A stretch of 64,000 bases of DNA, taken from the IMG/VR virus record IMGVR_UViG_3300028422_000873; one strand, given 5' to 3'. The DNA comes from a virus. Its lineage: Duplodnaviria > Heunggongvirae > Uroviricota > Caudoviricetes. This document shows positions 8,160-25,862 of the stretch, piece after piece. A program made the translations under genes and the position numbers. The notes under the pieces were generated by a model. The model saw only the letters and a list, made by a program, of their open reading frames with translations, had not been told where the DNA came from and ran no database searches. Within the stretch, counting starts at the first letter, position 1; the number at the start of each line of letters is the position of its first letter.

Positions 8160-9257
8160 ATGCAAGAATATAAAGGTCAGTACACAGACTGTAAGGTGTA
8201 TAGCGACTACGTCGAAGAAGAAGCTGTCAGACAGATATTCTCCTTCCTAAATTGTCCTGTGTTCGACGGTGAGACTATACGCGTGATGCCAGATGTACAT
8301 GCTGGATCAGGTGCTGTTATCGGCTTCACTTCTACTTTCACAGACAAGATAATACCTAATGTCATCGGCGTCGATATCGGCTGCGGTGTACTATCCTGTA
8401 ACTTCAAGACTGATGACCTAGACCTGCAGGCACTTGATAGGTTCATAAAGCAGAACATACCGAGCGGTTTCTCTATCAATAAAAAAGTAAGACCGGAGAT
8501 CAAGAAACCATTTCTAAAGTCGATACGTGACGTAGTTGCTGTGATCGGTGAGAAAGAGCCTGACAGAGATGCTAGGGCTATAGGTTCTCTCGGTGGTGGT
8601 AATCACTTCATAGAGATAGGTAGAGACGTTAATGATGAATCTTACTGGTTGACTATACACTCAGGCTCTAGAAACTTCGGACTACGTATCGCACAGCATC
8701 ACCAACGGATAGCAAAGAAACTTAATCCTTTCGGTGATCTTTCTTGGTTGGACGGTGATGAGGCTCAACTGTATATAGAGCATATGAAAGTGGCTCAGCA
8801 GTATGCCTCTCTAAATAGAGAACTTATGATGAAGAGTATAATCAAGCATCTCGGCGTGAAGGTAATCGACACGGTTGAGTCAGTGCATAACTACATCGAC
8901 TTCGACAACAACATAATCCGTAAAGGTGCTATATCTGCTCAAGAAGGAGAGAAGCTTATTATCCCATGGAACATGGAAGACGGACTTATAATCGGTGTTG
9001 GTAAGGGCAACACTGACTGGAACTGCTCTGCTCCTCATGGAGCTGGTCGTGTTCTGAGTCGTGGAAAAGCAAAGAGAACTCTATCCTTAGATGAGTTCAA
9101 AGAGCGTATGAAGGATGTATACTCATCTTGCGTTAGCGAGAATACACTCGATGAATCTCCTATGGCATATAAAAACTGCCAAGAGATCATCGAGTACATC
9201 GAACCAACGATTGAGATACTTCATACTATAAAACCGATCTATAACTTTAAGGCTTAA
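8160..9257 (+). CDS. rtcB: RtcB-family RNA-splicing ligase (3'-phosphate/5'-hydroxyl RNA ligase), compact 365-aa form
   Basis: GGGNHFIEIG and SAPHGAGRVLSRGKAKR motifs match the RtcB metal/GTP-binding signatures (GxGNHF, HGAGR). Confidence 0.7.
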   Translation: MQEYKGQYTDCKVYSDYVEEEAVRQIFSFLNCPVFDGETIRVMPDVHAGSGAVIGFTSTFTDKIIPNVIGVDIGCGVLSCNFKTDDLDLQALDRFIKQNIPSGFSINKKVRPEIKKPFLKSIRDVVAVIGEKEPDRDARAIGSLGGGNHFIEIGRDVNDESYWLTIHSGSRNFGLRIAQHHQRIAKKLNPFGDLSWLDGDEAQLYIEHMKVAQQYASLNRELMMKSIIKHLGVKVIDTVESVHNYIDFDNNIIRKGAISAQEGEKLIIPWNMEDGLIIGVGKGNTDWNCSAPHGAGRVLSRGKAKRTLSLDEFKERMKDVYSSCVSENTLDESPMAYKNCQEIIEYIEPTIEILHTIKPIYNFKA

Positions 9258-9284
9258 CCGATTCGATTTATTATTGATGAATAG
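9256..9284 (+). promoter_or_regulatory. conserved intergenic motif copy 1 (AACCGATTCGA plus TGATGAATAG)
   Basis: AACCGATTCGA at 9256-9266, TGATGAATAG 10 nt downstream; 30 nt upstream of the RBS of 9314..9877. Confidence 0.4.
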
Positions 9285-9313
9285 TAGTCTATTTTAAAAA
9301 AGAAGGAGTATCT

Positions 9314-9877
9314 ATGGATGATTATAAAGAAGTAGTGTTAAGCGGACAGGTCTTTAAAGTTAGATACAAGAAAGAGCAGGAACAATTAGAGGTTCATGAA
9401 GAGACCGACGATGAAAAAGCCGAGAAAGAACTTCTGGAAATCGATACTAAGAACAGGCATGTTCTCAACGATGTCATTAATGATATTCAAGACGATCTTA
9501 TCAGGGAGCTTAAGTACAACGCGAAATCTGCGCTATTAAGTGCTATCGGATTTAGTGACTCGTGGGGTAAATGGCAAGTAGATCATTGCAACGGACGTAT
9601 GGGTGAGATCGCAAAATATATCAAGCGTAATGTAGAAGATGTATTATCTGATCTATCAGTAACGGTTCCAACAATCACTCAAGAAGACGCAGATGAGCTT
9701 GGTAAGGCCATGAAGAAAGAATATATGATGCACTATAGTCGTCAATATAAAGACACTTTGGTAGCATTGGCAAAACAGCAAGCCAGTGAAGATACTCATG
9801 CATTGCTTAAAGAAGTTTTGGAACAAGAAAAAGAAGTTAGAGACGCAATCTTAAGTAAATTACTATGCGAAAAATAA
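9314..9877 (+). CDS. hypothetical protein
   Basis: AAGGAG RBS; 187 aa. Confidence 0.45.
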   Translation: MDDYKEVVLSGQVFKVRYKKEQEQLEVHEETDDEKAEKELLEIDTKNRHVLNDVINDIQDDLIRELKYNAKSALLSAIGFSDSWGKWQVDHCNGRMGEIAKYIKRNVEDVLSDLSVTVPTITQEDADELGKAMKKEYMMHYSRQYKDTLVALAKQQASEDTHALLKEVLEQEKEVRDAILSKLLCEK

Positions 9878-10155
9878 GATATGTCTACATTGTAGATACA
9901 GAACATTTTGATGGACCTGTTCTGAATCACGTAGAGGGTTTTTACTCTACTAAAAAAGAAATGTGTGGGGTACTCAGGGCTGTGGGTTTCAAGTACAACA
10001 GTGAGACCGGTGATTGGTACACGGGTAAAAGTATATATTATGGAGACTCATACGCGTACGTGAAGAGAATAGAGAGCGGCGTCGATAACTGGAAACAAGA
10101 GATAGAAGCTGGTATAAAACTAGTTTTATTTAAGTTTAAACTGTACAAATACTAG
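9865..10155 (+). CDS. hypothetical protein
   Basis: 96 aa; overlaps the upstream stop. Confidence 0.4.
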   Translation: MRKIRYVYIVDTEHFDGPVLNHVEGFYSTKKEMCGVLRAVGFKYNSETGDWYTGKSIYYGDSYAYVKRIESGVDNWKQEIEAGIKLVLFKFKLYKY

Positions 10156-10163
10156 GGAATAAA

Positions 10164-10583
10164 ATGAAGAGGGAAGACAAAGATATACTCGAGCGTAAAG
10201 AGAAACTCATGAACGAGGTTCTGGATAAGGTGGAGTCAGCTCTAAGAGAAAATCCAGAGAATCTAATATTTGCATTAGATAGTCGTCGTTCTCCGTATAT
10301 TCATTTTGGCGTTAAATTAGACAGCGGAGATAAGGCTTGTTTTTACGTAGATGACAATCATTTGTCGCTCACTATAGTTAATAACAATGTCGATCATACT
10401 TACAACATCATGTATTATTATAATACATGGATATCGTACCGTCATATTTTTAAACGTGCTACACGTGTCAAAGCGGCAGTGAAAAAATACAAAGACAACA
10501 AAGAGCAATACGATCTGCTCAACATGTTAGAAAGAAAAGTCGCAGACGTAGATAAAATATTACTCGGAGAGGAGGAAAAATGA
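10164..10583 (+). CDS. hypothetical protein
   Basis: 139 aa. Confidence 0.4.
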   Translation: MKREDKDILERKEKLMNEVLDKVESALRENPENLIFALDSRRSPYIHFGVKLDSGDKACFYVDDNHLSLTIVNNNVDHTYNIMYYYNTWISYRHIFKRATRVKAAVKKYKDNKEQYDLLNMLERKVADVDKILLGEEEK

Positions 10584-10876
10584 AGAATGCAGTTACATTA
10601 GAGTCTCTAAAAGCACAGGGATTCAAGGTTTTCTTAAAGCATACAAGGGAGGACAGTGGTCGTTACATTACTAGAGTCGCAGTGTATCATGAGGAAACCC
10701 ATCAGATCAGTCACGCAGCAGCCATCACACATCCAAATGATCAGTTCTCACGCAAGAAAGGCAGAACTATCGCTCTTGGTAGAGCGATGAACGAGAGAAC
10801 AAGAACACTAGTTGATACAGAGGGTTGGTCTCAAGAGAGATTAGACGAGTATATTAGGCAAGTAGTGTTCTCATAA
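10580..10876 (+). CDS. hypothetical protein
   Basis: GGAGGAGG RBS; 98 aa; ATGA start/stop overlap. Confidence 0.45.
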   Translation: MKNAVTLESLKAQGFKVFLKHTREDSGRYITRVAVYHEETHQISHAAAITHPNDQFSRKKGRTIALGRAMNERTRTLVDTEGWSQERLDEYIRQVVFS

Positions 10877-10890
10877 GTAGAGATATAAAA

Positions 10891-11142
10891 ATGAGCGACA
10901 ATAGTGTTGATATTTTAGCTAGAATATTAGGTTTCTATTATTCACTATTAGAAATAGATGAACCAATAAATAGAGAAACTGTCGCTCATTTTTATAATGA
11001 GTATCATGAAAAACGATTATTATGTAAGTTAGGTATTCATAACGTGGTTAATATAACTATTAGAATATATCATAGCGATATACATTACAGAGTATGCAAA
11101 CACTGTGGTAAAAATCATCCAGTGTTGACTGGGGAGTGGTAG
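10891..11142 (+). CDS. hypothetical protein with C-terminal CxxC...H zinc-ribbon-like motif
   Basis: VCKHCGKNHP. Confidence 0.4.
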   Translation: MSDNSVDILARILGFYYSLLEIDEPINRETVAHFYNEYHEKRLLCKLGIHNVVNITIRIYHSDIHYRVCKHCGKNHPVLTGEW

Positions 11143-11469
11143 ATGAGCAATCTAGCTTTACCAAAAGGTAAGAATGTAAAGAGACCCATTAGAGAACCAG
11201 ATCATTATTCTCATAGGGGTGTACCGTATTGGTGGGCTCCAGAGTGGGTTCGTGAGTCTAACGGTTCTATGGGAAGAATCAAAGCAGTAAAGAGCGGCAG
11301 CGATGTCGATCTATACATGTGTTCAAAATCCGGCAACCTAACCTATATTAGAGGAAGAATTCAGGAGGAGTTTCAACGTTGGCATCAGGACAATGAGATT
11401 GATTATATCCTGTTAGGTATCGACATCGATGAGGTTCTTCTATCTGACTGGGAGTACGACGATGAGTAA
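11143..11469 (+). CDS. hypothetical protein
   Basis: 108 aa; TAGATG abutting the upstream gene. Confidence 0.4.
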   Translation: MSNLALPKGKNVKRPIREPDHYSHRGVPYWWAPEWVRESNGSMGRIKAVKSGSDVDLYMCSKSGNLTYIRGRIQEEFQRWHQDNEIDYILLGIDIDEVLLSDWEYDDE

Positions 11470-11520
11470 ATCAAAAGAAAAAATATCTATGAGATTAGCA
11501 GTTACTTTGGTTGGTGGGGA

Positions 11521-11721
11521 ATGTATCAGACCGTTATCATCGAAGCATCATCATATAAAGAGGCAACAACTAATCTAAAAGATAAAGTAAAAGAAATATA
11601 TGAGGGACTAGGTAGAGGGCGTAATCAACAAGAGTTTTACTGTAAGGTTGTTGGTTACAGAGTTATAAAAGAAGTTAAACCTTTTATAGAGTTTAAGAAA
11701 CCTCAAGTTTTCAATGATTAG
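11521..11721 (+). CDS. hypothetical protein
   Basis: 66 aa; GGTGGGG RBS. Confidence 0.35.
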   Translation: MYQTVIIEASSYKEATTNLKDKVKEIYEGLGRGRNQQEFYCKVVGYRVIKEVKPFIEFKKPQVFND

Positions 11722-12082
11722 TCAAAATACCATGAGATTGCAAGAACACAGTATTAATAAAGCATGCTCTATCTTAAATAAAGGGGGATTTGTCTGTACA
11801 ACATCTTATACACATGCTATATACTACAAAAGAATTGATGGAACCATATGGATGTATCATTTTAAGTACGGATATAGAAAGTACTTTAATTCTATAAAAG
11901 ACCTTAAGAGATCTAACAAGGATATGACTTTTTATAGGTTGAAACGACAATTTAATCCTTATTTTAGAACAAGGTTCTGTTTTTATGAGGAAGCTTTTGA
12001 TAATAGGACTGTTAGAGGATACTGGTCATATCCTCATTATGGCTCATCAATGCGAACAAAAGTCTTAAAATTACCAACATGA
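11714..12082 (+). CDS. hypothetical aromatic-rich protein
   Basis: 122 aa; last gene before a roughly 680-bp non-coding AT-rich region. Confidence 0.4.
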   Translation: MISQNTMRLQEHSINKACSILNKGGFVCTTSYTHAIYYKRIDGTIWMYHFKYGYRKYFNSIKDLKRSNKDMTFYRLKRQFNPYFRTRFCFYEEAFDNRTVRGYWSYPHYGSSMRTKVLKLPT

Positions 12083-12762
12083 GTGCTGATACCCAGAAAA
12101 CATTAAACGATGATGTGTACAGATGTTGATATTTTTTCACCATGATGTTATATAGATTAGACGTAGCAGATATGCTCGTAACTGGACGACCAGTTGACAA
12201 CTTCATAAATAAATATTCTATGAAAGAGGATTAGTGTGAGACATGTACCTATTAAATGGACGCAGTATGAATCATGGTTTAATATACGAATCACAGTCCG
12301 TAAATTACTTAATATCAAATGGAAAGGCAGTCCTAATAAATTGATTACTTACTTTGAAAAATACAGGGCAGTGGGCGAAGATTAGACGTCTATAGGGGAT
12401 AAATGTATTCAAAAGATGTATATAGTTTGATACAATTAAACTCGCTTATTAAAATACGAATTACGTTTCGCAGATTATTAGGTATTGATTGGCTTACTCT
12501 CCCAAGCGCAATAGAAGGTTATTTAAAAAAATATTCAATAAAAAAATAATTTTTTCTGTGTTTAGCCTTTTGTATGGGTATAATCAAATCATGATGTTTT
12601 TAAATTCTATAAAACACATTCAAGAAACGATTATCGGCGGTTGGCAACCGGCGGCGGTCGGTCATGCAATCGGGATAGAGCCGAAAGGCCATCACGATAT
12701 CCAAGTGCAGCAGTAAGCACGGACAAAAAACACTGAAAAACTATTATTAAATTAAAATTAGA

Positions 12763-12841
12763 GGGCGATGGGACTGCAAGGGGTGGTCACCAGTTTTGCA
12801 ATCTGGAAATCAGCAGGGTTCGATTCCCTGATCGTCCACCA
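12763..12841 (+). tRNA. tRNA-Ala (UGC)
   Basis: acceptor GGGCGAT/ATCGTCC with the G3:U70 Ala identity pair; anticodon loop TTTGCAA; T-arm CAGGG-TTCGATT-CCCTG; CCA encoded. Confidence 0.7.
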
Positions 12842-12862
12842 AAAAGAGTAAGATATATGAAA

Positions 12863-12890
12863 AACCGATTCGAAAAAAGGGAGAAGTTAC
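12863..12890 (+). promoter_or_regulatory. conserved intergenic motif copy 2 (AACCGATTCGA) between tRNA-Ala and tRNA-Gln
   Basis: AACCGATTCGA at 12863-12873, about 40 nt upstream of the tRNA-Gln 5' end. Confidence 0.35.
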
Positions 12891-12913
12891 AGCAACAGGT
12901 TAAATAATTTAAT

Positions 12914-12989
12914 TGGCCTGTCATCTAAACGGTTAAGATACTGGACTTTGACTCCAGCAATCAGGGTTCGATTCCCTGCGGGTCTGCCA
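12914..12989 (+). tRNA. tRNA-Gln (UUG)
   Basis: anticodon arm CTGGA-CTTTGAC-TCCAG perfect; D-arm ATCT/AGAT with AAACGGTTA loop; T-arm CAGGG-TTCGATT-CCCTG; acceptor has a U1-U72 mismatch and two G-U pairs; CCA encoded. Confidence 0.65.
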
Positions 12990-12999
12990 GATATAAAAT

Positions 13000-13076
13000 G
13001 GGGCTGAAGATGAAGTGGTGGAATCACCGGCCTGTCACGCCGGAGGAAGTGGGTTCGACTCCCATCGGTCTCGCCA
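13000..13076 (+). tRNA. tRNA-Asp (GUC)
   Basis: anticodon arm CCGGC-CTGTCAC-GCCGG identical in form to bacterial tRNA-Asp; acceptor GGGGCTG/CGGTCTC (two G-U); T-loop TTCGACT; CCA encoded. Confidence 0.7.
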
Positions 13077-13122
13077 AGATAGTAGTTTTCTGAGGGTTCT
13101 ACTTATAAAAACTCTCTATTGT

Positions 13123-13199
13123 GTTGGCTGTAGTTTAGTTGGTTAAAACGCTAGGTTGTGACCCTGGCAACGCCGGTTCGAATCCGGTCGGCCACCCCA
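13123..13199 (+). tRNA. tRNA-His (GUG) with G-1
   Basis: anticodon arm CTAGG-TTGTGAC-CCTGG; D-arm GTTT-AGTTGGTTA-AAAC; extra 5' G opposite the C73 discriminator (His identity); T-loop TTCGAAT; CCA encoded. Confidence 0.65.
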
Positions 13200-13212
13200 A
13201 AAAGAAAGTAAT

Positions 13213-13286
13213 GCCGGTGTAAGCTAGTGGCAAACTGCCTGACTTCCAATCAGGACTCGAGAGTTCGATTCTCTCTACCGGCACCA
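13213..13286 (+). tRNA. tRNA-Gly (UCC)
   Basis: acceptor GCCGGTG/TACCGGC; anticodon arm CCTGA-CTTCCAA-TCAGG; T-arm GAGAG-TTCGATT-CTCTC; CCA encoded. Confidence 0.8.
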
Positions 13287-13450
13287 TAAATAAATAGGGA
13301 GGTTGAAGACCTGCTGAAAGACATTAAAGTAGTTTGATCGAGTAACAGACGCAAAGGCAATAAAAACCACAGAGCTGGAGGAAGGGTCCAGACAGGCTCT
13401 TTCAGATGAACAGATGGGTAATAAGCAGGGGATAAACCTTTCCAGCGTTA

Positions 13451-13535
13451 AAGACAGTAGCTCAGTCGGAAGAGTGCCGGCATTTGCATTTGCGTTTGGA
13501 GCCGGAGGTCGCGGGTTCGAGTCCCGCCTGTCATT
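13451..13535 (+). tRNA. aberrant tRNA / tRNA pseudogene with a 19-nt expanded anticodon loop (ATTTGC-ATTTGC-GTTTGG-A), no encoded CCA
   Basis: canonical D-arm (TAGCTCAGTCGGAAGAGT) and T-arm (GCGGG-TTCGAGT-CCCGC) and 5-bp anticodon stem CCGGC/GCCGG, but the loop between them is 19 nt built from three tandem TTTG(C/G) hexamers; acceptor AAGACAG/CTGTCAT has one mismatch. Confidence 0.4.
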
Positions 13536-13550
13536 AAAGCTATATATTAT

Positions 13551-13628
13551 CCGGGTGTAGCGCAGTCTGGTTAGCGCACTTGTTTTGGGAACAAGGGGTC
13601 GAAGGTTCAAATCCTTCCATCCGGACCA
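13551..13628 (+). tRNA. tRNA-Pro (UGG)
   Basis: acceptor CCGGGTG/CATCCGG; D-arm GCGC-AGTCTGGTTA-GCGC; anticodon arm CTTGT-TTTGGGA-ACAAG; T-loop TTCAAAT; CCA encoded. Confidence 0.75.
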
Positions 13629-13638
13629 TAAATTTTGT

Positions 13639-13713
13639 GGAGCGTTCGTCTAGTGGTCTAGGATGCCAGACCTTCAATCTGGTCACACGGGTTCAAATCC
13701 GTACGCTCTCCCA
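13639..13713 (+). tRNA. tRNA-Glu (UUC), with C33 and a slightly irregular T-arm
   Basis: acceptor GGAGCGT/ACGCTCT; D-loop AGTGGTCTA; anticodon arm CCAGA-CCTTCAA-TCTGG; CCA encoded; T-arm one nt short of canonical. Confidence 0.55.
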
Positions 13714-13723
13714 ATATAATAGT

Positions 13724-13801
13724 GGTTGGGTAACATAGTCGGTTTAATGTACCGGACTTTTAATCCGGGTTACGTGGGTTCGAGTCCCACCCCATCCACC
13801 A
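13724..13801 (+). tRNA. tRNA-Lys (UUU)
   Basis: anticodon arm CCGGA-CTTTTAA-TCCGG; D-arm ACAT/ATGT; T-arm GTGGG-TTCGAGT-CCCAC; one 3:70 mismatch; CCA encoded. Confidence 0.75.
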
Positions 13802-13807
13802 CTTAAT

Positions 13808-13882
13808 GGTCGCGTAGTTCAACGGTAAGAACTCCAGTCTGATATACTGGCAACAAAGGTTCGACTCCTTTCGCGACTACCA
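13808..13882 (+). tRNA. tRNA-Ile (GAU)
   Basis: acceptor GGTCGCG/CGCGACT; D-arm GTTC-AACGGTAA-GAAC; anticodon arm CCAGT-CTGATAT-ACTGG; T-loop TTCGACT; CCA encoded; starts 6 nt after tRNA-Lys. Confidence 0.8.
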
Positions 13883-13893
13883 TTTTTTACAAT

Positions 13894-13966
13894 ACCCGGT
13901 TAGCTGGGGGATTATCGCCGTCCTTACAAGTCGGAGACGTTGGTTCGATTCCAACACCGGGTACCA
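13894..13966 (+). tRNA. tRNA-Val (UAC)
   Basis: perfect acceptor ACCCGGT/ACCGGGT; anticodon loop CTTACAA as in bacterial tRNA-Val(UAC); T-arm GTTGG-TTCGATT-CCAAC; CCA encoded. Confidence 0.75.
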
Positions 13967-13971
13967 TATAT

Positions 13972-14047
13972 GCTCCTGTGGTGCAATGGTCTAGCATGAG
14001 GTCCTTATAAGCCTTAGATTCAGGTTCGATTCCTGGCAGGAGTACCA
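13972..14047 (+). tRNA. tRNA with UAU anticodon loop (CTTATAA), candidate AUA-reading tRNA-Ile2
   Basis: acceptor GCTCCTG/CAGGAGT (G1-U72); D-arm GTGC-AATGGTCTA-GCAT; T-arm TCAGG-TTCGATT-CCTGG; anticodon stem has one U-C mismatch; CCA encoded. Confidence 0.55.
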
Positions 14048-14051
14048 TTAA

Positions 14052-14127
14052 GCTGGCATAGTTAAATGTGTTATAGCACTAGCTTTGTAACCTAGTATTC
14101 TCAGTTCGATTCTGAGTGCCAGCTCCA
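14052..14127 (+). tRNA. tRNA-Thr (UGU)
   Basis: perfect acceptor GCTGGCA/TGCCAGC; anticodon loop TTTGTAA; T-arm CTCAG-TTCGATT-CTGAG; CCA encoded; starts 4 nt after the previous tRNA. Confidence 0.7.
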
Positions 14128-14184
14128 TTTAAGAATTATATAGTATAAAAGATTCCAAAGGAGAAATAAATTGAATCTAAAATA

Positions 14185-14324
14185 TGCACAAAGTGCAATG
14201 AAACTAAACCAATTGAAGAATTTTCTTGGAAGATAGAGCATGGTCTATAGAACATATATTAGAAGAGATAGCTAAATGCGAGGTGTTATATGCTAACTGT
14301 CATGCGGAAGAGCATGAGAAATAA
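14185..14324 (+). pseudogene. decayed HNH endonuclease remnant (frameshifted) inside the tRNA array
   Basis: frame 1 encodes CTKCNETKPIEEFSWKIEHGL*, then the -1 frame continues WSIEHILEEIAKCEVLYANCHAEEHEK*; CxxC...H...NCH..EH is the HNH zinc-finger/catalytic layout; duplicated WKIEH/WSIEH segment marks the frameshift. Confidence 0.4.
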
Positions 14325-14330
14325 GTATTA

Positions 14331-14406
14331 AGGGTGTCTAGTATAACGGTAGTACTGCAGCCTCCAAAACTGCACAGTGAGGGTTCGAATCCTTCGGCGC
14401 CTGCCA
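14331..14406 (+). tRNA. tRNA-Trp (CCA) with poorly paired acceptor stem
   Basis: anticodon loop CTCCAAA and 3' end ...CCT-G-CCA resemble bacterial tRNA-Trp; D-arm AGTA-TAACGGTAG-TACT; T-arm GAGGG-TTCGAAT-CCTTC; acceptor AGGGTGT/GGCGCCT pairs only 4 of 7. Confidence 0.5.
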
Positions 14407-14408
14407 TA

Positions 14409-14433
14409 AACCGATTCGACAAGTACAATATAC
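14409..14433 (+). promoter_or_regulatory. conserved intergenic motif copy 3 (AACCGATTCGA plus TACAATATAC)
   Basis: AACCGATTCGA at 14409-14419, 27 nt upstream of the ATG of 14446..14928. Confidence 0.4.
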
Positions 14434-14445
14434 GAGAGGTATCGC

Positions 14446-14928
14446 ATGAATATATTTGTCACATCATTATCACCAACAAGATCTGCTAAATTTCTGGATA
14501 ATAAGCGTCTCGTAAAGATGGTACTAGAAACTGCTCAACTACTTAGTACGGCACTTAGGTATCATGGATCTACTGATGATGTATATAAAGCCACTCATGT
14601 AAATCATCCAGCTAGTATATGGGTACGACAGAATAAATCTAACTATAAGTGGTTACTAGCTCATTTCAGAGCGCTCAACGAAGAGTACACGAGGAGATAT
14701 GGTAAGATCCATAAGAGTTCTAGTAAATGGAACTTATTCAAGAACGGCATCAACTTGTTGCCTGCCGGTAAACGAACGATGTTTGCTAACTGTGCGGCCA
14801 ACAGTGAATTAAACTTAAACTTCAAGCACCTGCCAGTATTAGAGGCTTATAAAAAGTACCTGTATAAGCGCTTCACTGGAGATAAGAAACCAGCATTATG
14901 CAACTGGAGTTATAGTGAAACACAGTAA
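14446..14928 (+). CDS. putative pyrimidine-dimer DNA glycosylase (T4 endonuclease V / DenV-like)
   Basis: N-terminus MNIFVTSLSPTRSAKFLDNKRLVKMVLETAQLL follows the DenV pattern (xINLxxVxELxDQHLMAEYRELPRVF) including the catalytic Glu; HPASIWVRQNKSNYKWLLAHFRALNEEY resembles the second conserved block. Confidence 0.4.
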   Translation: MNIFVTSLSPTRSAKFLDNKRLVKMVLETAQLLSTALRYHGSTDDVYKATHVNHPASIWVRQNKSNYKWLLAHFRALNEEYTRRYGKIHKSSSKWNLFKNGINLLPAGKRTMFANCAANSELNLNFKHLPVLEAYKKYLYKRFTGDKKPALCNWSYSETQ

Positions 14929-15228
14929 AAAACTATCAATGATGTTCATAATGTATATGCTAGACATAGTTGATGCTAAATATGTAAAAGAGAATTGTAC
15001 GTACCATGAATCACAGGGGATTCTCATGGTTGCTAAATTTCACTTCATCAATCATAACGCTCAATGGCCAAAAGACATTGACGGCCTGTAGACATAGTAA
15101 AAATAATACTTGGTATAATAAGACTCTTCAGAAAAAAGAAGCACATCAAAAAAATCCTACAACCAGGAAAAATCATTATCTTAACCACTATGTTGATTTA
15201 TGGTATAATATAGAGATAAGGAGATACC

Positions 15229-16084: not shown

Positions 16085-16115
16085 TTTCGTATAATACTGT
16101 AATGAGGAGAATATA

Positions 16116-16331: not shown

Positions 16332-16332
16332 T

Positions 16333-16965
16333 ATGAAAAGAGCATGTACTATATGGTTTACCTCAGATTTACACTTCGGACATAAGAGTGTAAAGGATTT
16401 TCAACCTGATAGACCTGGTAACACCGTAAGTGAACACGATGAGGCACTCATCAGAAACTGGAATAAAAACATTGGTCCAGCCGATACCGTTATTGTTCTG
16501 GGCGATGTATTCTTCAGTGGATCGACGTATGCGCGCTCTATAATGAATAGATTAAACGGAAACAAGATACGCGTGAGAGGAAACCACGATAGTTGGTCTC
16601 ACACTCAAGCTATAGCGAGTGGCTTTTCTTTCTCATGTGATTATCTGGAAATGACTATAGCTGGTCAAAAAGTAATACTAAGTCATTATCCTTATAGATA
16701 TACATTCTGGCAAGAAGTTAAAGCCTTTATAAAAAATCCATTTCGTAAGAAACCTCGTTATTCAGAACGTAGACCGAGAAACGAGGGTGAGTGGTTATTG
16801 CACGGTCATACACACTCTTATAAGATACTCAGAAACAAGATGATACATGTTGGAGTAGACGCTTGGAACTATCGTCCGGTACATATATCACATATTGAGA
16901 ACATTATTCAGACTGGAAAACTACCTAAAAATTTACCTAAACAGATTCGAGATAGACAAAGATAG
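16333..16965 (+). CDS. calcineurin-like metallophosphoesterase
   Basis: start at MKRAC (GGAG RBS); motifs DLHFGH, GDVFFSG, RGNHD, GHTH. Confidence 0.65.
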   Translation: MKRACTIWFTSDLHFGHKSVKDFQPDRPGNTVSEHDEALIRNWNKNIGPADTVIVLGDVFFSGSTYARSIMNRLNGNKIRVRGNHDSWSHTQAIASGFSFSCDYLEMTIAGQKVILSHYPYRYTFWQEVKAFIKNPFRKKPRYSERRPRNEGEWLLHGHTHSYKILRNKMIHVGVDAWNYRPVHISHIENIIQTGKLPKNLPKQIRDRQR

Positions 16966-16991
16966 GGTAATATTTTTTTGGAGGGGTAGAT

Positions 16992-17540
16992 ATGGATGTT
17001 GGTTCTTTTATTTGGGGGTTTTTAACATGTACTGGATGTGTACTGATGGTGCTACCTAAGGTAGTAAACAATCATCGTAAAGCAGATAGAGATATTATCA
17101 GGCATCTATCAAATGATGTTGTTATTCTAAAAGATAAAATAAAGTATTTGACAACCAAGAGACAGGTACCCGAGCCTATAATCCCAGAAACCACAGAACA
17201 AGATAACTGGGAAAAACTAAAGAAGATTAATGATCTAGCAAGAGAAATTGATGAACTTAGTGCTCATATAGAGATGCCATCAAAAAATCAACTACACTCT
17301 ATATTTAAGAACGATCTGATTAGAAAGGCCAAGGGGTTGATAGAGCAAAGAGATAATCTTCTATTAGAGATATGGAATAGTGGATTTAATCCATCGATAC
17401 CAGTTGAACAAGAAGATGGTAGTATGGTCAGAATGAATCTAAGAGACGCACTAGCAGACAAATTCAACAGCATAGAGAAAAAAGAACCAAAGAAAAGCCA
17501 TCTTAGACTAGTAAAGGATAACGAAAATGAGGATTCCTAG
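16992..17540 (+). CDS. membrane-anchored coiled-coil protein
   Basis: GGAGGGG RBS; N-terminal TM; coiled-coil remainder. Confidence 0.4.
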   Translation: MDVGSFIWGFLTCTGCVLMVLPKVVNNHRKADRDIIRHLSNDVVILKDKIKYLTTKRQVPEPIIPETTEQDNWEKLKKINDLAREIDELSAHIEMPSKNQLHSIFKNDLIRKAKGLIEQRDNLLLEIWNSGFNPSIPVEQEDGSMVRMNLRDALADKFNSIEKKEPKKSHLRLVKDNENEDS

Positions 17541-17808
17541 AAGAAAACCAGACTGTACTTATGTATCAGATACTGATAATCTTGTTGAGCTGTGGTTCGA
17601 TGAGATGGTTTTAACAACGTCTAAAGACGACGACATTAAGATAATGTGTCTATCTCGCGATGGAGATAAGTTATTAGCTTTTGCTCCAGCTATTGAAAGA
17701 AATAAGAAAACCTATTATCAAAAAGTAGAGCTAGATAGTAAGTGTGTTATTAAAGAATGGCAAGAATATCTAGCAAATAAAGAAATTAACAACATATTGG
17801 AGGAATGA
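17527..17808 (+). CDS. hypothetical protein
   Basis: 93 aa. Confidence 0.4.
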   Translation: MRIPRRKPDCTYVSDTDNLVELWFDEMVLTTSKDDDIKIMCLSRDGDKLLAFAPAIERNKKTYYQKVELDSKCVIKEWQEYLANKEINNILEE

Positions 17809-18086
17809 TGACTCCCGAAGAAGCAGCGAAAAAACTAATTGAACTAGATGCGAGAAAACCAGCGATCAAAGCATACTATGAAGAAGTAGCTGAGTGCCTG
17901 GAAATTCTCGGTGTTGATGCACACTTTCAAGACGACGAAGATGGAACTGTTTTTCTAGTGGAAGAACAAACAGGTCGTTTCGTTACTTTCGATAAACTGC
18001 GATATGTTCGCACTAAGAAAGCAGATGAGGTGCGCGGTGAATTATCCAAGAAAAGAGCTAAAGAACTCGGATACGACGTCGAATAG
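17805..18086 (+). CDS. hypothetical protein
   Basis: 93 aa; GGAGGAATG start. Confidence 0.4.
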   Translation: MMTPEEAAKKLIELDARKPAIKAYYEEVAECLEILGVDAHFQDDEDGTVFLVEEQTGRFVTFDKLRYVRTKKADEVRGELSKKRAKELGYDVE

Positions 18087-18105
18087 TAATTGCGATACAC
18101 TTAGT

Positions 18106-18141
18106 GTCTTCGGTATTTAGTCTAATTCTAATACCGAAGAC
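18106..18141 (+). terminator. 12-bp stem-loop after 17805..18086, with no T-run
   Basis: GTCTTCGGTATT / AATACCGAAGAC perfect inverted repeat with 12-nt loop, followed by GATTTAC rather than a U-tract. Confidence 0.35.
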
Positions 18142-18162
18142 GATTTACATCATGGAGGCGTC

Positions 18163-18804
18163 ATGGAGATTCAGAAAAAAGAAGAATCAAAGAAAAGAAA
18201 GAGAAGACCATATGCAGTGGTTCTTGACTACGATGATACATGTGTAGATTTCATCGGTTTCTTATGTACTCTACATAATCATTTACATGGGACCTGCATG
18301 ACGCGCCGCGATGTTGTAAACTGGTGTTTTAGTGATATCGATATGAAAGATGCGAGAGGGCATACCGTAACAGGTGCAGAATTCAACAGCACATTCAAAG
18401 AATGGGAAAACGACGGATTATATGCATCGTTGCCAGCACTGAAAGATGCTAGAAGAGCAATTGATCTAATGAAAACACTGGGTTACAAGGTTATTATATT
18501 AACAGCTAGAGATGAGAAGTATCGTAAACAGACAGAACTTAATGCTATGCATCAGCATTTAAAGTATGATGAATTACACTTCTCAAATGATAAAGTTAAG
18601 ACCATTCGTGAATTAAGTAAGGTCTATAACATAAAGATGTTTGCTGATGATAAGGCATCTACAGTTATATCTATTGCTGAGAAATGTAAAGTAAAACACG
18701 TTTTCTTGATTGATCAAGAGCATAACTCTGATATAGATGATGATGACATCGTAAGAGTTAAAGATATTATGGAGACGATACGTTATCTCCCGGATGTGTC
18801 TTAA
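18163..18804 (+). CDS. 5'(3')-deoxyribonucleotidase (NT5C family, HAD superfamily)
   Basis: VVLDYDDTCVDF is the HAD DxDx(T/V) motif I in NT5C-like context; ILTAR and FADDKAS downstream motifs. Confidence 0.5.
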   Translation: MEIQKKEESKKRKRRPYAVVLDYDDTCVDFIGFLCTLHNHLHGTCMTRRDVVNWCFSDIDMKDARGHTVTGAEFNSTFKEWENDGLYASLPALKDARRAIDLMKTLGYKVIILTARDEKYRKQTELNAMHQHLKYDELHFSNDKVKTIRELSKVYNIKMFADDKASTVISIAEKCKVKHVFLIDQEHNSDIDDDDIVRVKDIMETIRYLPDVS

Positions 18805-18971
18805 CAGTGAAAGAGTACTCAAGAGAAAATATAGACTTCGAACACGCTTGTCAGTGTGTTTTTGATCTATTAAGGATGATGAGTCGTCTAGATATAGATA
18901 TTTCTAATATTTGGCTTTCTTCGTTTTATATTGATCTTTATGTGTGTTACCACATGACTACGTAAAATCTT

Positions 18972-19002
18972 AACCGATTCGAAATTTTATTGTGATAATA
19001 TA
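18972..19002 (+). promoter_or_regulatory. conserved intergenic motif copy 4 (AACCGATTCGA plus TGTGATAATAT)
   Basis: AACCGATTCGA at 18972-18982; extended -10-like TGTGATAATAT 10 nt downstream; upstream of 19035..19766. Confidence 0.45.
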
Positions 19003-19034
19003 TAAACTTATACGAATCAGTTATCGGAGGAATA

Positions 19035-19766
19035 ATGTTTACAGATAGCGTTTATCAAAATATGGATGAGATATCGCAACTAGTAGAACCTTTTCAATGT
19101 AAGTTCAATGCGGAATTAGCTAAATTACCAGAAGAAATTCAAATCACATATGAGATCTTAGAGAAACATGCGAGATTCCATAGCGGCTCATACGGCATTT
19201 CCTCTTTCCCTGTGGATAGTATTATAGTATTGACATGCCGTGAGGTCGGTGCAAATTACGAGATTCTAAAAGATAGGCGCTATATAGATTATAATGAAGA
19301 TCTATATAAGATATGGATTGAACAAGATGCAACGATAGATTTTGAGAAAAAGACTTTAGCCGGCGACATTAAATTAATTAAGGCAAAAGAGGCTTTAACA
19401 GATGAAGAATTATATAGTAAAGTAATTAATAACTTAGATGGTACACTATACAGTACCATGTATAAAGCTTCAAATGTATCTAAGGCTAACGTCAATGAGA
19501 TAGCTGAAATATTTGATATTGAGGGTGTTAATAAAGTAAAAAGCATTAGAGATAAAAAGAACACCCTGATAAAAGGCTTATTATCGCAGTTTGAAGATCG
19601 TAAGATAAATATACGCGATTTGGAATTAGGTTTTCGCTTTGCAGATTGGATAAAGGCATATCTATGTCGCGGTAACTTAGCTGCTATTAAAAATCTAACA
19701 TTATTTAAGGTGATGATGTTAAACGGTCTGCCGATCTATAGTTTAGATAATGAGGAGCCATTATAA
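19035..19766 (+). CDS. hypothetical protein
   Basis: 243 aa; CGGAGG RBS. Confidence 0.45.
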   Translation: MFTDSVYQNMDEISQLVEPFQCKFNAELAKLPEEIQITYEILEKHARFHSGSYGISSFPVDSIIVLTCREVGANYEILKDRRYIDYNEDLYKIWIEQDATIDFEKKTLAGDIKLIKAKEALTDEELYSKVINNLDGTLYSTMYKASNVSKANVNEIAEIFDIEGVNKVKSIRDKKNTLIKGLLSQFEDRKINIRDLELGFRFADWIKAYLCRGNLAAIKNLTLFKVMMLNGLPIYSLDNEEPL

Positions 19767-20263
19767 TGGATAATCTTAAAACACTTAAAGAGAAGATATC
19801 ACAGTTAAAACCCAGTGATTCTATTTTCCACATTATTAAAGGATGGGGTGACGAACTTAGGTTTGTAAAACTCGGTGTGGAAGAGAATTCTTCTCTCATA
19901 ACAATGGACGATTTCATAAAATATAGATTCTCAGAGTTTTTTAATGGAAACACCATGAGATTCGAGATTGATGAAGAGAAGATATATAATAATGTCATAT
20001 ATGATTATAAACGTGAATTCTTTAGAGTCTTCGATTTAGTGTGTCCAGCTAAGAAACCAAGACAAACTAAGTTTTTTAAAGAATTTGATTCATTCTATAA
20101 TAATATTGTTTATAGTGATAACAGTGGAGATGAGTTAAACAATACCGTGATATCTTTGGTTAATTATTTTAATGCAAACAAAGACAGTATGAATCCAGAT
20201 ACAGTTCATGGTAAAAACATGTACAATCTTCTTCGAGCTTTAATTAAGAAATATAGAAAATAG
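19766..20263 (+). CDS. hypothetical protein
   Basis: 165 aa; TAATGG start/stop overlap. Confidence 0.45.
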   Translation: MDNLKTLKEKISQLKPSDSIFHIIKGWGDELRFVKLGVEENSSLITMDDFIKYRFSEFFNGNTMRFEIDEEKIYNNVIYDYKREFFRVFDLVCPAKKPRQTKFFKEFDSFYNNIVYSDNSGDELNNTVISLVNYFNANKDSMNPDTVHGKNMYNLLRALIKKYRK

Positions 20264-20271
20264 GAGAACAT

Positions 20272-20652
20272 ATGGCGACAAAAACAAGAACAAACAGGGT
20301 CGTTACCAACGAGGACATTGAGAAGTATGACCCCATGATCGAATCATGGTTGCGCAAATCAGTAATTAAAAACTGGAATGAGGCAGATATGGGGAAACAA
20401 AATGGAGAAATATCTTTAGGTAACTCAGGTTACACGATGAATGACATACGTCAGCATCTTAGATGCGAGGTATTGATTGCACTAAAGAACTACGATCCGT
20501 CGCGTAAAGCAAAAGAGAGTACTTTTGTATATGGACATCTCTATAATCGCATCGGACAACTGATGAAAAAATTAACAGGTAAGTCTATGGGGTATGGTGT
20601 ATGGACTAATAACCTCGAAGAAGTATTACAAGAGATAAATATAGACGATTAA
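20272..20652 (+). CDS. gp55-like late-transcription sigma factor (candidate)
   Basis: 126 aa; pattern ...IESWLRKSVIKNW...ISLGNSGYT...EVLIALKNYDPSRK...FVYGHLYNRIGQLMKKL parallels T4 gp55 (...IIDWKTEL...IGLAIML...FNFSGYT...GLHNFDETK...FNAFVQRIKK). Confidence 0.45.
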   Translation: MATKTRTNRVVTNEDIEKYDPMIESWLRKSVIKNWNEADMGKQNGEISLGNSGYTMNDIRQHLRCEVLIALKNYDPSRKAKESTFVYGHLYNRIGQLMKKLTGKSMGYGVWTNNLEEVLQEINIDD

Positions 20653-20777
20653 GAGGTATCTATGTTGAGAATATTTAAAAAGACAGCAGTAGCAATTAAG
20701 ATGCATGTATTTATCTTTATAATGGGGACTATCTGGGTTGATAAAAAATACAATGCTAATTATACAGAGAGATATTA

Positions 20778-21137
20778 ATGAGATTTCTGTTATTAGCAAT
20801 TTTATTACTATGTGGTTGTAGTAAAAATCAAGATATTGCAGATAAAAAGATTTACAATGATCTTAAACCACCTACAAAACACAATGTAAAAACTAATCTA
20901 TTTAGGGTGGGTGACTGTATTATTCATCATCTTGACCTAGAAAACCTTCAAAAAGATATGAATGAATGGGAAAGAGAACCCGTCTTATACTATAAAATAA
21001 CAAAAGTTGGTAAAGTAAAGTATGGCGTACTTGCTTTCGTAACTGACATGAAAAAACCAACACAGGGTCTTCAGCGAATAACCTGGTTAACTAAAAAAGA
21101 CTATCTATTAACTAAGTGCCCTGAGGAGTTACAATGA
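20778..21137 (+). CDS. putative lipoprotein
   Basis: signal peptide with lipobox LLLCGCS. Confidence 0.45.
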   Translation: MRFLLLAILLLCGCSKNQDIADKKIYNDLKPPTKHNVKTNLFRVGDCIIHHLDLENLQKDMNEWEREPVLYYKITKVGKVKYGVLAFVTDMKKPTQGLQRITWLTKKDYLLTKCPEELQ

Positions 21138-21688
21138 ACGTCGTAGTACTATTAGGTCCTCCTGGTTCTGGTAAATCTACTCATGCTAAGTTGTTAGCTA
21201 AGAATATCCCATCGTGTTCTTGGATGTCTATGGGTGATTTACTGCGTGATGAGATAGAATCTGGTAGTGAGATAGGTGAACAAATACAGCGTACAGTGGC
21301 AAACGGCGAACTAGTGCCAAATGATGTATGTTATAAGCTACTTGAACCGTTCTTTCTTAGTTCGTTGCGCGACACGTTTATAATAGATGGTTTTCCAAGA
21401 AGTCTTAATCAAGTTTCGATATTAGATGATTTCTGTATAAAACCTATTATCATAGAGATAAACTGTACTTACGAAATAGTACTTGACAGATTAACGCGCA
21501 GGTGCCGTGACGACGATACAGAAACTGTGATAAAACACAGATACGATGTATATACTTCTGATACTACAGAGGCGATAAAGAAAATGCGCAAAAAGTATAA
21601 AGTATATAAGGTATACGGCGGAGATGACATAGATGTCATTCATGAAAAAATACGCAAGATAATAGAGGAGAACAATGAAGATATATAA
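21134..21688 (+). CDS. nucleoside monophosphate kinase (adenylate/cytidylate kinase fold)
   Basis: P-loop GPPGSGKST; NMP-binding GDLLRDE; LID/CORE GFPRSLNQ; overlaps the upstream and downstream genes by 4 and 14 nt. Confidence 0.6.
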   Translation: MNVVVLLGPPGSGKSTHAKLLAKNIPSCSWMSMGDLLRDEIESGSEIGEQIQRTVANGELVPNDVCYKLLEPFFLSSLRDTFIIDGFPRSLNQVSILDDFCIKPIIIEINCTYEIVLDRLTRRCRDDDTETVIKHRYDVYTSDTTEAIKKMRKKYKVYKVYGGDDIDVIHEKIRKIIEENNEDI

Positions 21689-22493
21689 TAACATTCACGA
21701 CGCTTATTTAGGTACTTTAGCAGATGTATATGATAATCCTGAGTTTGAGTGTGCACCCAGAGGCCAGAAGATTAAAGAGTGTTTGGATTATCAATTTCGT
21801 GTACTGTGTCCAGAGGTAACTCCTATAATCACAAAAGATGAAGAAAGAAACAAAATTATAGCAGAATATACTGCTAAAGAAACAGCATTATACGACTCAT
21901 GCAGTAATAATGTTGAAGATTTTGCTAAAGCAAGTTCATTCTGGAGAAAAATAGCCAACAACGATGGCACTATTAACTCTGCATACGGCTATCTAATATG
22001 GAAAAATAATTCTTGCGGTGATCCTCTTCAAGAGCTGTCTTTTATAGATGATAGTGGGATTAATCCCAGAGTTATGGTTTTAAACTCGCTTACACAGACT
22101 GGTATGAAAGCCCACAGAGAATGTAAACGCACACCATGGGAATGGTGTGTTCAATCATTAAAGGCTGATAAAGATACAAGGCAGGCTCATTTAAAATTTA
22201 GTCTACCAGAGCATCTATGGATAGGTAACAAGGATCAAGTTTGCACATTACATGCTAACTTTCTGATACGTGATGATAAGTTGAATATGTCTGTAGTAAT
22301 GAGATCAAATGATCTTATGTTGGGTCTAGTATATGACCTACCTTGGTTTGTGAGCCTAATGGATAAGATGATCGATGAATTAAAAAGAGATTACCCAAGT
22401 CTAACAAAGGGACACTACACTCATACAGTTCACAGTATGCATATTTATGAACGCGATGAAGAAAAAGTCATGAAGATGCTTGGGAGAGTTTAA
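21675..22493 (+). CDS. thymidylate-synthase-family pyrimidine C5 transferase; Asp at the ThyA Asn177 position suggests a dCMP hydroxymethylase-like enzyme
   Basis: catalytic Cys context VCTLHANF (ThyA PCHALFQF); MRSNDLMLGLVYDLPWF aligns to ThyA QRSADVFLGVPFNIASY with N replaced by D, as in T4 dCMP hydroxymethylase. Confidence 0.6.
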   Translation: MKIYNNIHDAYLGTLADVYDNPEFECAPRGQKIKECLDYQFRVLCPEVTPIITKDEERNKIIAEYTAKETALYDSCSNNVEDFAKASSFWRKIANNDGTINSAYGYLIWKNNSCGDPLQELSFIDDSGINPRVMVLNSLTQTGMKAHRECKRTPWEWCVQSLKADKDTRQAHLKFSLPEHLWIGNKDQVCTLHANFLIRDDKLNMSVVMRSNDLMLGLVYDLPWFVSLMDKMIDELKRDYPSLTKGHYTHTVHSMHIYERDEEKVMKMLGRV

Positions 22494-22903
22494 TGGCCAT
22501 GATTTTTAGTGGAGTAACTATAACTACTACTGGAACTAGTGGTTTAACAACAGAAGAGTATAGCGAGCTGCATGAATTAAGACATGAGCATGAAAATAAA
22601 ATTAAAGATGAGAGACTCCGATTATTTAAAGAATTACCATCAAAGCTACGACAGAAAATAGTTGATAAAGTAATACTTAATAAACTTATAAGAGATATGA
22701 GGAATGTCACGGTAGAGAAAAATGAACGACATAAAGAGTTAAGCAACAGAGCTAATCCTGCATATATCATAGGGGATCATACTGTTTCCTGGGATGCATC
22801 TGCATTTAGAGATAATATTAATGAATTACTTAAATGGTTTACAGAAGAAGAGTTAATAAATGCTCACAATGACGCTTGTGCAGAAGAAATATTATCAACA
22901 TAG
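22493..22903 (+). CDS. hypothetical protein
   Basis: 136 aa; ATGG overlap with the upstream stop. Confidence 0.4.
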   Translation: MAMIFSGVTITTTGTSGLTTEEYSELHELRHEHENKIKDERLRLFKELPSKLRQKIVDKVILNKLIRDMRNVTVEKNERHKELSNRANPAYIIGDHTVSWDASAFRDNINELLKWFTEEELINAHNDACAEEILST

Positions 22904-22911
22904 GAGGGAAT

Positions 22912-23535
22912 ATGGGATGTGATATTCACATGTATGGCGAATATCGTATGGGGAAAGGTGATACATGGAAATTATTACCTGAACATAAATTAGAAATCGA
23001 AGAATACGGAACTCCTGGAGAAGAGGATTACGAGCGATATGAACATATAAAAGAAATAGGCGGTAGCAGAAGCTACTCCCTATTTGGTCTACTAAGTAAT
23101 GTTCGATGCGATGGTCAGATGATAGAAGATAGGGGTTTCCCGGAAAATGCTTCTCCAGAGGTTAGAGCTCAAAAAGAACGTGATGGAATTGACGGTCATT
23201 CACATAATCATGTATCATTAGAAGATTTCAAGAGGGTCATGGAGGAACATAGTAAACTAGTAGAAAAAGAAAATGAATTTTACATAAAAGAGTTCAAAGA
23301 AATGCATGATAGAGGAATTATTACAGAAGAACAATACGAAAGAAGATTACGTATGTTCTCCATAAGAGAAGAGAAAAAACCCATATATGAAAATCCTTTC
23401 AAGAGTTATCAATGGCATAATGTTGTACCATATCTGGAACAATTCATAAAAGATAATACTGTTAATGTCCCAGAAGTAAATGGCTTACTAGATGCGATTC
23501 CAGAAGTTAGACTTGTTTTCTGGTACGACAACTAG
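22912..23535 (+). CDS. hypothetical protein
   Basis: start at MGCDIHM after GGAGGG RBS; 207 aa. Confidence 0.4.
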   Translation: MGCDIHMYGEYRMGKGDTWKLLPEHKLEIEEYGTPGEEDYERYEHIKEIGGSRSYSLFGLLSNVRCDGQMIEDRGFPENASPEVRAQKERDGIDGHSHNHVSLEDFKRVMEEHSKLVEKENEFYIKEFKEMHDRGIITEEQYERRLRMFSIREEKKPIYENPFKSYQWHNVVPYLEQFIKDNTVNVPEVNGLLDAIPEVRLVFWYDN

Positions 23536-23571
23536 AAAAACTACATGAAGAACACTATTTACTAGATACAT

Positions 23572-23602
23572 AAACCGATTCGATTAATATGCATGATAGA
23601 TA
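23572..23602 (+). promoter_or_regulatory. conserved intergenic motif copy 5 (AACCGATTCGA plus TGATAGATAT)
   Basis: AACCGATTCGA at 23572-23582; TGATAGATAT 10 nt downstream; upstream of 23619..24026. Confidence 0.45.
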
Positions 23603-25571: not shown

Positions 25572-25575
25572 TTTA

Positions 25576-25791: not shown

Positions 25792-25862
25792 GTGTTTCTC
25801 CTTTATATTATGTATTATACCAAGTATTTTAAAGAATTGTAGAATATTAATAGGAGAATTAT

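Follow-up and report, generated by a model that had tools for sequence, protein, structure and literature searches.

The DNA analysed here is a 64,000-nucleotide stretch of the IMG/VR virus record IMGVR_UViG_3300028422_000873 (Caudoviricetes), referred to as the window. It is part of an uncultured phage of ~166 kb, and the same sequence is present on a 166.6-kb metagenomic contig. The major capsid protein is about 31% identical to that of SPO1-like Bacillus phages, and the source phage is, as far as its sequence tells, distantly related to this group. No close relative was found among deposited phages, where megablast gave only a tRNA match. The plus-strand block of the window contains small genes, 15-16 tRNAs, and genes for RtcB, a pyrimidine-dimer glycosylase, a phosphoesterase, and adenylate-kinase-like and thymidylate-synthase-like proteins. 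The minus-strand block, which begins at 27.6 kb, encodes the major capsid protein, portal, terminase, DNA polymerase, RecA and SSB. An 11-mer, AACCGATTCGA, is repeated between the genes of the plus-strand block, and we examined whether its sites, termed class A here, could form a phage-specific class of promoters.

Distribution of the 11-mer in the window

Exactly five copies of AACCGATTCGA are present, all on the plus strand (9256, 12863, 14409, 18972 and 23573), whereas 0.02 copies are expected by chance; five copies were reached in none of 100 dinucleotide-preserving shuffles. An earlier note, made from the sequence alone, had reported this recurrence. It was borne out, and four of the five positions given there were exact, while the last one (23572) was off by one. 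Once mismatches were allowed, a sixth site stood out, AACAGATTCGA at 16940, which differs from the 11-mer at one position. A position-weight matrix derived from the first 17 sites was then used to scan both strands. Six plus-strand sites scored at least 17 bits (17-24 bits), clear of the next best match at 11 bits, and the best minus-strand score in the window was 9.5 bits. The search on both strands that had been proposed as a check thus gave six sites on the plus strand and none on the minus strand.

The five exact copies are intergenic, as had been claimed, with copy 9256 sharing 2 nt with the TAA stop of the RtcB gene; copy 16940 lies within the final 26 nt of gene 16333-16965. The class A sites precede tRNAs, repair and nucleotide-metabolism genes and a cassette with a sigma-like gene, and not late or structural genes. 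In agreement with the earlier description, no class A motif was found in the minus-strand structural block (27.6-64 kb of the window). The six sites are listed in Table 1 together with the other features discussed below.

A locus with an identical overlap (L211), which reaches 4 kb to the left of the window, contains two further class A sites, at 1187 and 2824, which correspond to about -2886 and -1249 in window coordinates. One is preceded by a divergent ClpP-like gene; the other stands ahead of a DUF2201 gene and has an orthologue at L181 2788. Class A sites thus also occur outside 9.2-23.6 kb.

Table 1. Predicted class A promoters and other features of the window, with corresponding sites in related loci (L numbers). 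Distance is counted from the motif start to the next start codon or tRNA.
Feature	Position	Strand	Distance (nt)	Orthologous sites	Remarks
P1, predicted class A promoter	9256..9276	+	58		11-mer at 9256-9266, W-rich stretch, predicted +1 G 9276; before gene 9314-9877
P2, predicted class A promoter	12863..12883	+	51		predicted +1 G 12883, 31 nt before tRNA-Gln (12914)
P3, predicted class A promoter	14409..14429	+	37		2 nt after tRNA-Trp; before Pyr_excise gene 14446-14928
P4, predicted class A promoter	16940..16960	+	52	same variant AACAGATTCGA in L173 2120; AACCGAATCGA in L169 6855	variant AACAGATTCGA, in last codons of Metallophos gene 16333-16965; before gene 16992-17540
P5, predicted class A promoter	18972..18992	+	63	L169, L172/L174, L173, L176, L177, L178, L180, L195, L204	predicted +1 G 18992; before conserved three-gene cassette
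P6, predicted class A promoter	23573..23593	+	46	L169 15708, L172 8108, L173 11074	predicted +1 A 23593; before gene 23619-24026
Two genes of unknown function (243 aa and 165 aa)	19035..20263	+			synteny with the sigma-like gene
Gene for sigma region-2-only protein (126 aa), candidate reader	20272..20652	+			third gene behind P5
Sister-lineage elements					L188 ttCCGAaaaTATAATtctatATG and atCCGAtatTATATTtccgcATG; L185 ccCCGAtcaTATAAAtacacATG; L197 atCCGAttcAATATTtttttGtAGGAG
TGGTATAATA-class sites	3772, 12578, 15111, 15201, 16089	+			
TGGTATAATA-class sites	59004, 53468, 50008, 48002, 44920, 43317, 39218, 36533, 25822	-			
Terminase open reading frame	50056-52020	-			single open reading frame

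Conservation of the sites in related phages

The first relatives were obtained with the protein of gene 19035-19766 (gp19035), which lies behind copy 18972, as anchor. Its homologues are 35-50% identical, and their contigs (L169, L172/L174, L173 and L176) are syntenic with the window. In these phages the motif, exact or with one change, was found at the same three intergenic positions, namely before the orthologues of gp19035, of gp16992 (where it overlaps the end of the phosphoesterase gene) and of gp23619. Because the motif is kept at orthologous positions of the relatives, copy 16940 can be regarded as a genuine member of the class. In these relatives the flanking protein is only 45-50% identical and the intergenic sequence around the orthologous sites is unrelated, which rules out a dispersed repeat.

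A further 29 IMG/VR loci and several long metagenomic contigs were obtained via the sigma-like protein described below. Matrix hits in the 29 loci showed a strong strand preference, with 45 on the gene strand versus 2, both weak, on the opposite strand. Exact scans of IMG/VR with CATAAACCGATTCGA and CTTAACCGATTCGA returned single chance matches only, and the sole locus with two copies (L053) was unrelated. Relatives found via Pyr_excise, Metallophos or RtcB were too distant or non-syntenic, and the motif was not found in them. Scanning of bacterial and archaeal genomes with the gp19035 alignment gave no match.

Geometry of the sites and the predicted transcription start

The geometry was anchored on 21 high-scoring sites from nine phages, with the motif numbered from 1 to 11. 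The 11-mer is near-invariant in this set, and A11 is present in all 21 sites. No conserved column was observed upstream of the motif save a weak A-C-Y 3-5 nt before it. Downstream, nearly every site has A or T at positions 13, 14 and 16. Position 20 is a pyrimidine in 17 of the 21 sites and position 21 a purine in 19, P3 with its T being one of the two exceptions. The pyrimidine-purine step 9-10 nt past the motif occurs in 17/21 sites versus a background of 0.24 (p=6e-8), and no other downstream position stands out. Transcription starts are usually marked by such a step at a constant distance.

Two features of the downstream genes point to the same position. In at least four gene families an ATG without Shine-Dalgarno sequence stands at the predicted +1 and opens a long open reading frame; these leaderless genes include the gp19035 orthologues of two lineages with different promoter subtypes. 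Moreover, the distance from the motif to the Shine-Dalgarno sequence varies between 14 and 44 nt. The minimum of 14 nt is reached in four sites, P3 among them, and never undercut, which fits a start 10 nt past the motif. Since the Shine-Dalgarno sequence must be part of the mRNA and yet may follow after 14 nt, a -35-type or a MotA-type (-30) position of the motif was ruled out. A register with the -10 hexamer at positions 12-17 and the start at 24-25 was also considered and dropped, because +1 falls at position 21 according to both the pyrimidine-purine step and the leaderless ATGs. We infer from these patterns that transcription at class A sites begins at position 21, ~10 nt past the motif.

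Sister lineages that lack the 11-mer have at the same places the arrangement WWCCGA-N3-TATAAT-like hexamer-N5-purine (examples in Table 1). The hexamer reads TATAAT, TATATT or AATATT where the lineage of the window has GAWAWW. This form indicates how the 11-mer is composed: CCGA is an upstream element, a spacer of 3 nt follows, and the last two bases open a -10-like hexamer. The pattern common to the whole family, WWCCGA-N3-[TGA]A[TAC]WWW, was found 53 times on the gene strand versus 13 times on the opposite strand in 627 kb, with the pyrimidine-purine step present in 39/53 of the former and 0/13 of the latter. Its density was 8.45 per 100 kb per strand, versus 2.7 in unrelated viral loci of similar composition. 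A lone minus-strand match to this loose pattern in the window (atCCGAttaTACTTT at 54672) lies inside gene 54480-54830, ~190 nt upstream of gene 53473-54483, and is probably due to chance.

The sites were also compared with known promoter types. The hexamer has an A at its second position (-11) and lies five bases ahead of the purine start, within the ~5-8 nt of promoters of the sigma-70 family, and there is a single conserved block around -10 without a -35 element. No conserved box was found ~17 bp upstream of the -10 hexamer in the 21 sites, as a bipartite promoter would have. The same set showed no conservation at the distance of the TAAA box that lies 15 bp upstream of GCCGATAA in sigma-28/FliA-type promoters. 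The TG located 1 nt upstream of the hexamer in extended -10 promoters is absent; the 11-mer has T-C there. A sigma-28-type promoter, a Spo0A box, a cre site and a CtrA box were rejected by inspection against their consensus sequences.

The earlier note had coupled the 11-mer to a second half-site, TGATRRATAK, at fixed spacing and had likened the whole, as one option, to the MotA/AsiA-dependent promoters. Neither proposal was supported. The distance from the motif to TGAT is 8 nt at 9256 and 10 nt at both 18972 and 23573; at 14409 the motif is instead followed by TACAAT, 4 nt away, and nothing comparable is present after 12863. Copy 18972 mismatches TGATRRATAK, and the stretch is unconserved at the orthologous sites of the relatives and falls at or beyond the predicted start. 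Likewise, there is no box at -30; the motif spans about -20 to -10 and merges into the -10-like hexamer. On the other hand, the central suggestion of the note, a phage-specific promoter class, gained from the analysis. Conservation at orthologous positions, co-orientation with the genes, the fixed pyrimidine-purine step, leaderless starts on a purine and the hexamer of the sister lineages all agree with it. From these sequence features it is highly probable that the class A sites are promoters, and a middle-mode timing, as had been proposed, is plausible.

A sigma-like protein encoded behind P5

The third gene behind P5 encodes a protein with a weak Pfam match to sigma-70 region 2 (E=0.005) and without region 3 or 4. 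Region 2 is the only recurrent family match among the homologues of this protein (13/55), and its sigma-2 fold is counted here among the computed results. The family is large and highly conserved; it comprises at least 221 clusters with 55-84% identity, on contigs of up to 177 kb, and no homologue was detectable in about 50,000 deposited phage genomes. The protein is 84% identical in a phage whose neighbouring gp19035 is 46% identical.

The 243-aa and 165-aa genes precede the sigma-like gene in most of the relatives examined and are mostly adjacent to it; in L169, L173 and L176 they are separated from it by a small additional gene. Their products, gp19035 and gp19766, gave no match to a family or fold, and only two homologues of gp19766 were found. 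They may be partners of the sigma-like protein. Homologues of MotA and AsiA were not found among the about 60 window proteins scanned, which represent 64 kb of the ~166-kb genome.

A second promoter-like class

A second class of sites, TGGTATAATA or loosely RGTATAATW, without a -35 element, is located before many genes of the structural/replication block and before some plus-strand genes and tRNAs. It carries the TGn of extended -10 promoters and looks like a host promoter of this type. It also resembles the late box of the Kayvirus phages, TGTTATATTA (PMC7698491). By analogy with other phages, this class could be the true target of the small sigma.

Two copies of the second class lie 6 nt before an ATG in L177, which suggests leaderless genes there. 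Within the plus-strand block of the window, a TGGTATAATA promoter, a Shine-Dalgarno sequence and an ATG precede a 71-aa open reading frame on the minus strand (25576-25822), which is antisense to the plus-strand open reading frames at 25562-25885.

Proposed mechanism

The explanation that we consider likely is a phage-specific, single-block promoter that is read with the help of a phage-made specificity factor, as judged from the arrangement described above. After AA at the front of the 11-mer, CCGA (positions 3-6) would serve as the upstream specificity element at about -18 to -15, and TTC as the 3-nt spacer between it and the hexamer. GA (positions 10-11) and the W-rich bases that follow would make up the degenerate -10-like hexamer GAWAWW, with A11 at the place of the flipped -11 A of sigma-70-type promoters. 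Five further bases would then lead to the purine start, and no -35 element would be involved. Host core RNA polymerase together with the phage-made factor would read the sites, so that the class A promoters would drive the tRNA cluster, the nucleotide-metabolism and repair genes and the sigma cassette. Initial synthesis of the small sigma (20272-20652) would depend on read-through from host-type promoters further upstream, after which the protein would boost expression of its own operon.

That the 126-aa protein is itself the reader of the class A sites is a tentative assignment, which we hold at somewhat less than even chances. We are similarly reserved about the wider picture, in which a widespread clade of uncultured 130-177-kb phages might use a hitherto undescribed, domain-2-only sigma of ~125 residues to read promoters of a new kind, with CCGA 3 bp upstream of the hexamer replacing both the -35 element and TG, and with the sigma maintaining its own synthesis.

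Several observations weigh against the preferred explanation or against the role given to the small sigma in it. In the lineage of the window the hexamer is weak: among the 21 sites, the -7 position, where T is expected, holds A 11 times, T 7 times and G 3 times. Orthologous sites are non-independent samples, and the position-weight matrix was built on the first 17 of the sites. Every relative was fetched via the sigma-like protein or its neighbour; the co-occurrence of motif and sigma is thus a matter of construction. The gene for the sigma-like protein is itself located behind a class A site, and by analogy with T4 gp55 and SPO1 gp34 the small sigma might read the TGGTATAATA class instead. 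A G/Q difference in the sigma helix tracks the promoter subtype only partly; this covariation was suggestive, and it was given up as an argument because L194 and L195 break it and phylogeny confounds it. Finally, the ~166-kb genome, of which the 64 kb of the window and 4 kb to its left were covered, could have a gene for a second sigma or for an activator in another part.

Alternative explanations

The alternative that survives best is that the host primary-sigma holoenzyme reads the class A sites with the help of a phage activator bound to CCGA. The small sigma would then serve another class, for example TGGTATAATA before late genes. This would follow a MotA-like logic with a different geometry. 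The TATAAT and TATATT hexamers of the sister lineages could be read by the primary sigma, and the cassette offers two conserved proteins of unknown function. The position of the sigma-like gene behind a class A site is also paralleled by SPO1, in which gene 34 lies behind a middle promoter (PMC13401047). However, the sites have neither a -35 element nor a TG extension that would aid the binding of primary sigma, and GAWAWW in the lineage of the window is a poor hexamer for it. An activator bound at -19 to -16 would moreover be covered by the polymerase. The search for a DNA-binding fold in gp19035 was negative, and no family was found for gp19766. We therefore regard this alternative as unlikely.

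Much less probable is that the motif is an operator to which a phage repressor binds, silencing overlapping weak promoters of the host type. The motif is a short, highly conserved word that overlaps the -10 region, a frequent target of repressors. However, an operator does not require the strict co-orientation observed (45 versus 2), and the motif is non-palindromic beyond CGA-T-TCG. The motif aside, no recognisable strong promoter is present at the sites in the lineage of the window, and the pyrimidine-purine step and the leaderless ATGs keep a constant phase relative to the motif.

That the motif acts in RNA, marking where polycistronic early transcripts are processed or bound by a phage protein, is about as improbable as an operator. 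The motif is strand-specific, lies between genes and stands beside tRNAs that need processing, with RtcB and a polynucleotide-kinase-like gene nearby. Nevertheless, no common fold was detected around 19 sites (z-scores near 0), and Rfam detected tRNAs only. A hexamer of the DNA -10 type is present at the same place in the sister lineages, and the distance from motif to Shine-Dalgarno sequence is variable. The leaderless genes start exactly 10 nt past the motif, which would place the motif outside their mRNA. An inverted motif copy downstream of site 18972 (19012-19022) is peculiar to that site.

Chance copies, or functionless remnants of a repeat or mobile element, can be dismissed almost entirely in view of the expected count, the unrelated flanks and the orthologous conservation across diverged phages.

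Other features of the phage

The tRNA cluster (12914-14406, 14 tRNAs) begins with tRNA-Gln, its first Rfam-confirmed member. Upstream of it, ARAGORN predicted a 79-nt tRNA-Ala(tgc) on the plus strand (12763-12841) that Rfam did not find at gathering score. The cluster occurs together with the RtcB RNA ligase gene (8160-9257) and a polynucleotide-kinase/phosphatase-like gene (18163-18804, plus strand), and in relatives a CCA-adding enzyme and an intein-containing RNA ligase of the Rnl type join them. This set looks like a tRNA repair module, which probably counters host anticodon nucleases. In L169, a tRNA with anticodon CTA (6169-6244), an amber suppressor labelled 'Pyl' by ARAGORN, hints at stop-codon suppression or recoding in part of the phage group. 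The gap that precedes gene 18163-18804 holds, on the plus strand (18106-18141), a perfect hairpin of 12 bp (GTCTTCGGTATT / AATACCGAAGAC) with a 12-nt loop and no T tract, which may be a processing site or a factor-specific terminator.

Several genes of nucleotide metabolism were noted. A MazZ-like dATP/dGTP diphosphohydrolase domain is encoded at 38186-38662 on the minus strand (Pfam 2.4e-30). On the plus strand there are a thymidylate-synthase-like gene (21675-22493) and a weak Thy1-like match (24785-25351), and relatives additionally carry dCMP deaminase and UDG-like genes. The phage DNA may contain a modified base, possibly of relevance to promoter recognition. On the minus strand, a GIY-YIG/NUMOD homing-endonuclease-like gene (39232-40428) lies directly downstream of the major capsid gene. 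Repeats were seen in two minus-strand genes: a 15-mer recurs every 213 nt in gene 27625-28266 (27793, 28006 and 28219), and the SSB gene contains three tandem units of 18 nt (58056-58110).

Comparison with known systems

The principle that phage sigmas read phage-specific promoters is already known from T4, SPO1 and Kayvirus. The late promoters of Kayvirus (Staphylococcus phages, Herelleviridae) have a long -10 box, TGTTATATTA, and no -35 element, and are attributed to a phage sigma (PMC7698491). The class A sites share with them a single block of ~10-15 bp around -10, the lack of a -35 element and a spacer of ~5 bp to a purine start, in a distantly related lineage that likewise encodes a sigma of its own. 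They differ in that the sequence is unrelated, with CCGA 3 nt upstream of the hexamer and a hexamer that begins with G-A. They also stand before tRNA, nucleotide-metabolism and sigma genes instead of structural genes, and the sigma at hand has only 126 aa and no detectable sequence match in deposited phages.

The late promoters of T4 (TATAAATA) are read by gp55, which resembles sigma region 2, together with gp33 and the gp45 clamp (PDB 7d7d). These too are single-block promoters without a -35 element, and the sigma gene is expressed from a promoter that is not late. However, the motif differs, class A sites do not precede late genes in the window, no partner resembling gp33 or the clamp was identified here, and the 126-aa protein is ~60 residues shorter than gp55. 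In the middle promoters of T4, the MotA box is centred at -30, ~12 bp from the -10 element. The MotA/AsiA system resembles the class A sites in having a phage-specific word, ahead of a -10-like hexamer, in place of an element of host promoters. It differs in spacing, since CCGA is 3 bp from the hexamer here versus 11-13 bp, and no MotA or AsiA homologue was seen among the window proteins.

The promoters of SPO1 have the consensus sequences AGGAGA/TTTNTTT and CGTTAGA/GATATT. They are bipartite (-35 and -10), in contrast to the one contiguous block without -35 described here. In this related lineage, small phage sigmas displace the host sigma, and the gene for the sigma of the next class is transcribed from the previous one. 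The sigmas are gp28 for middle and gp34 for late promoters, and gp34 is itself the product of a middle gene (PMC13401047).

For promoters of the sigma-28/FliA/SigD type, which have the -10 element GCCGATAA, the CCGAT core is held in common. Unlike them, the class A sites have no TAAA box 15 bp upstream, and the distance between CCGA and the predicted start is too great for CCGA to be the -10 element.

The motif string was not found in the literature searched, and neither the geometry CCGA-N3-hexamer-N5-start nor a 126-aa family with sigma region 2 only turned up in the searches made. If the small protein reads the class A sites, it would be among the smallest sigma factors known. It would then offer a compact system for asking how promoters are selected by sigma domain 2 on its own and what takes the place of the contacts of regions 3 and 4. 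The family pattern itself can serve directly to annotate transcription units and leaderless genes across this group of uncultured phages.

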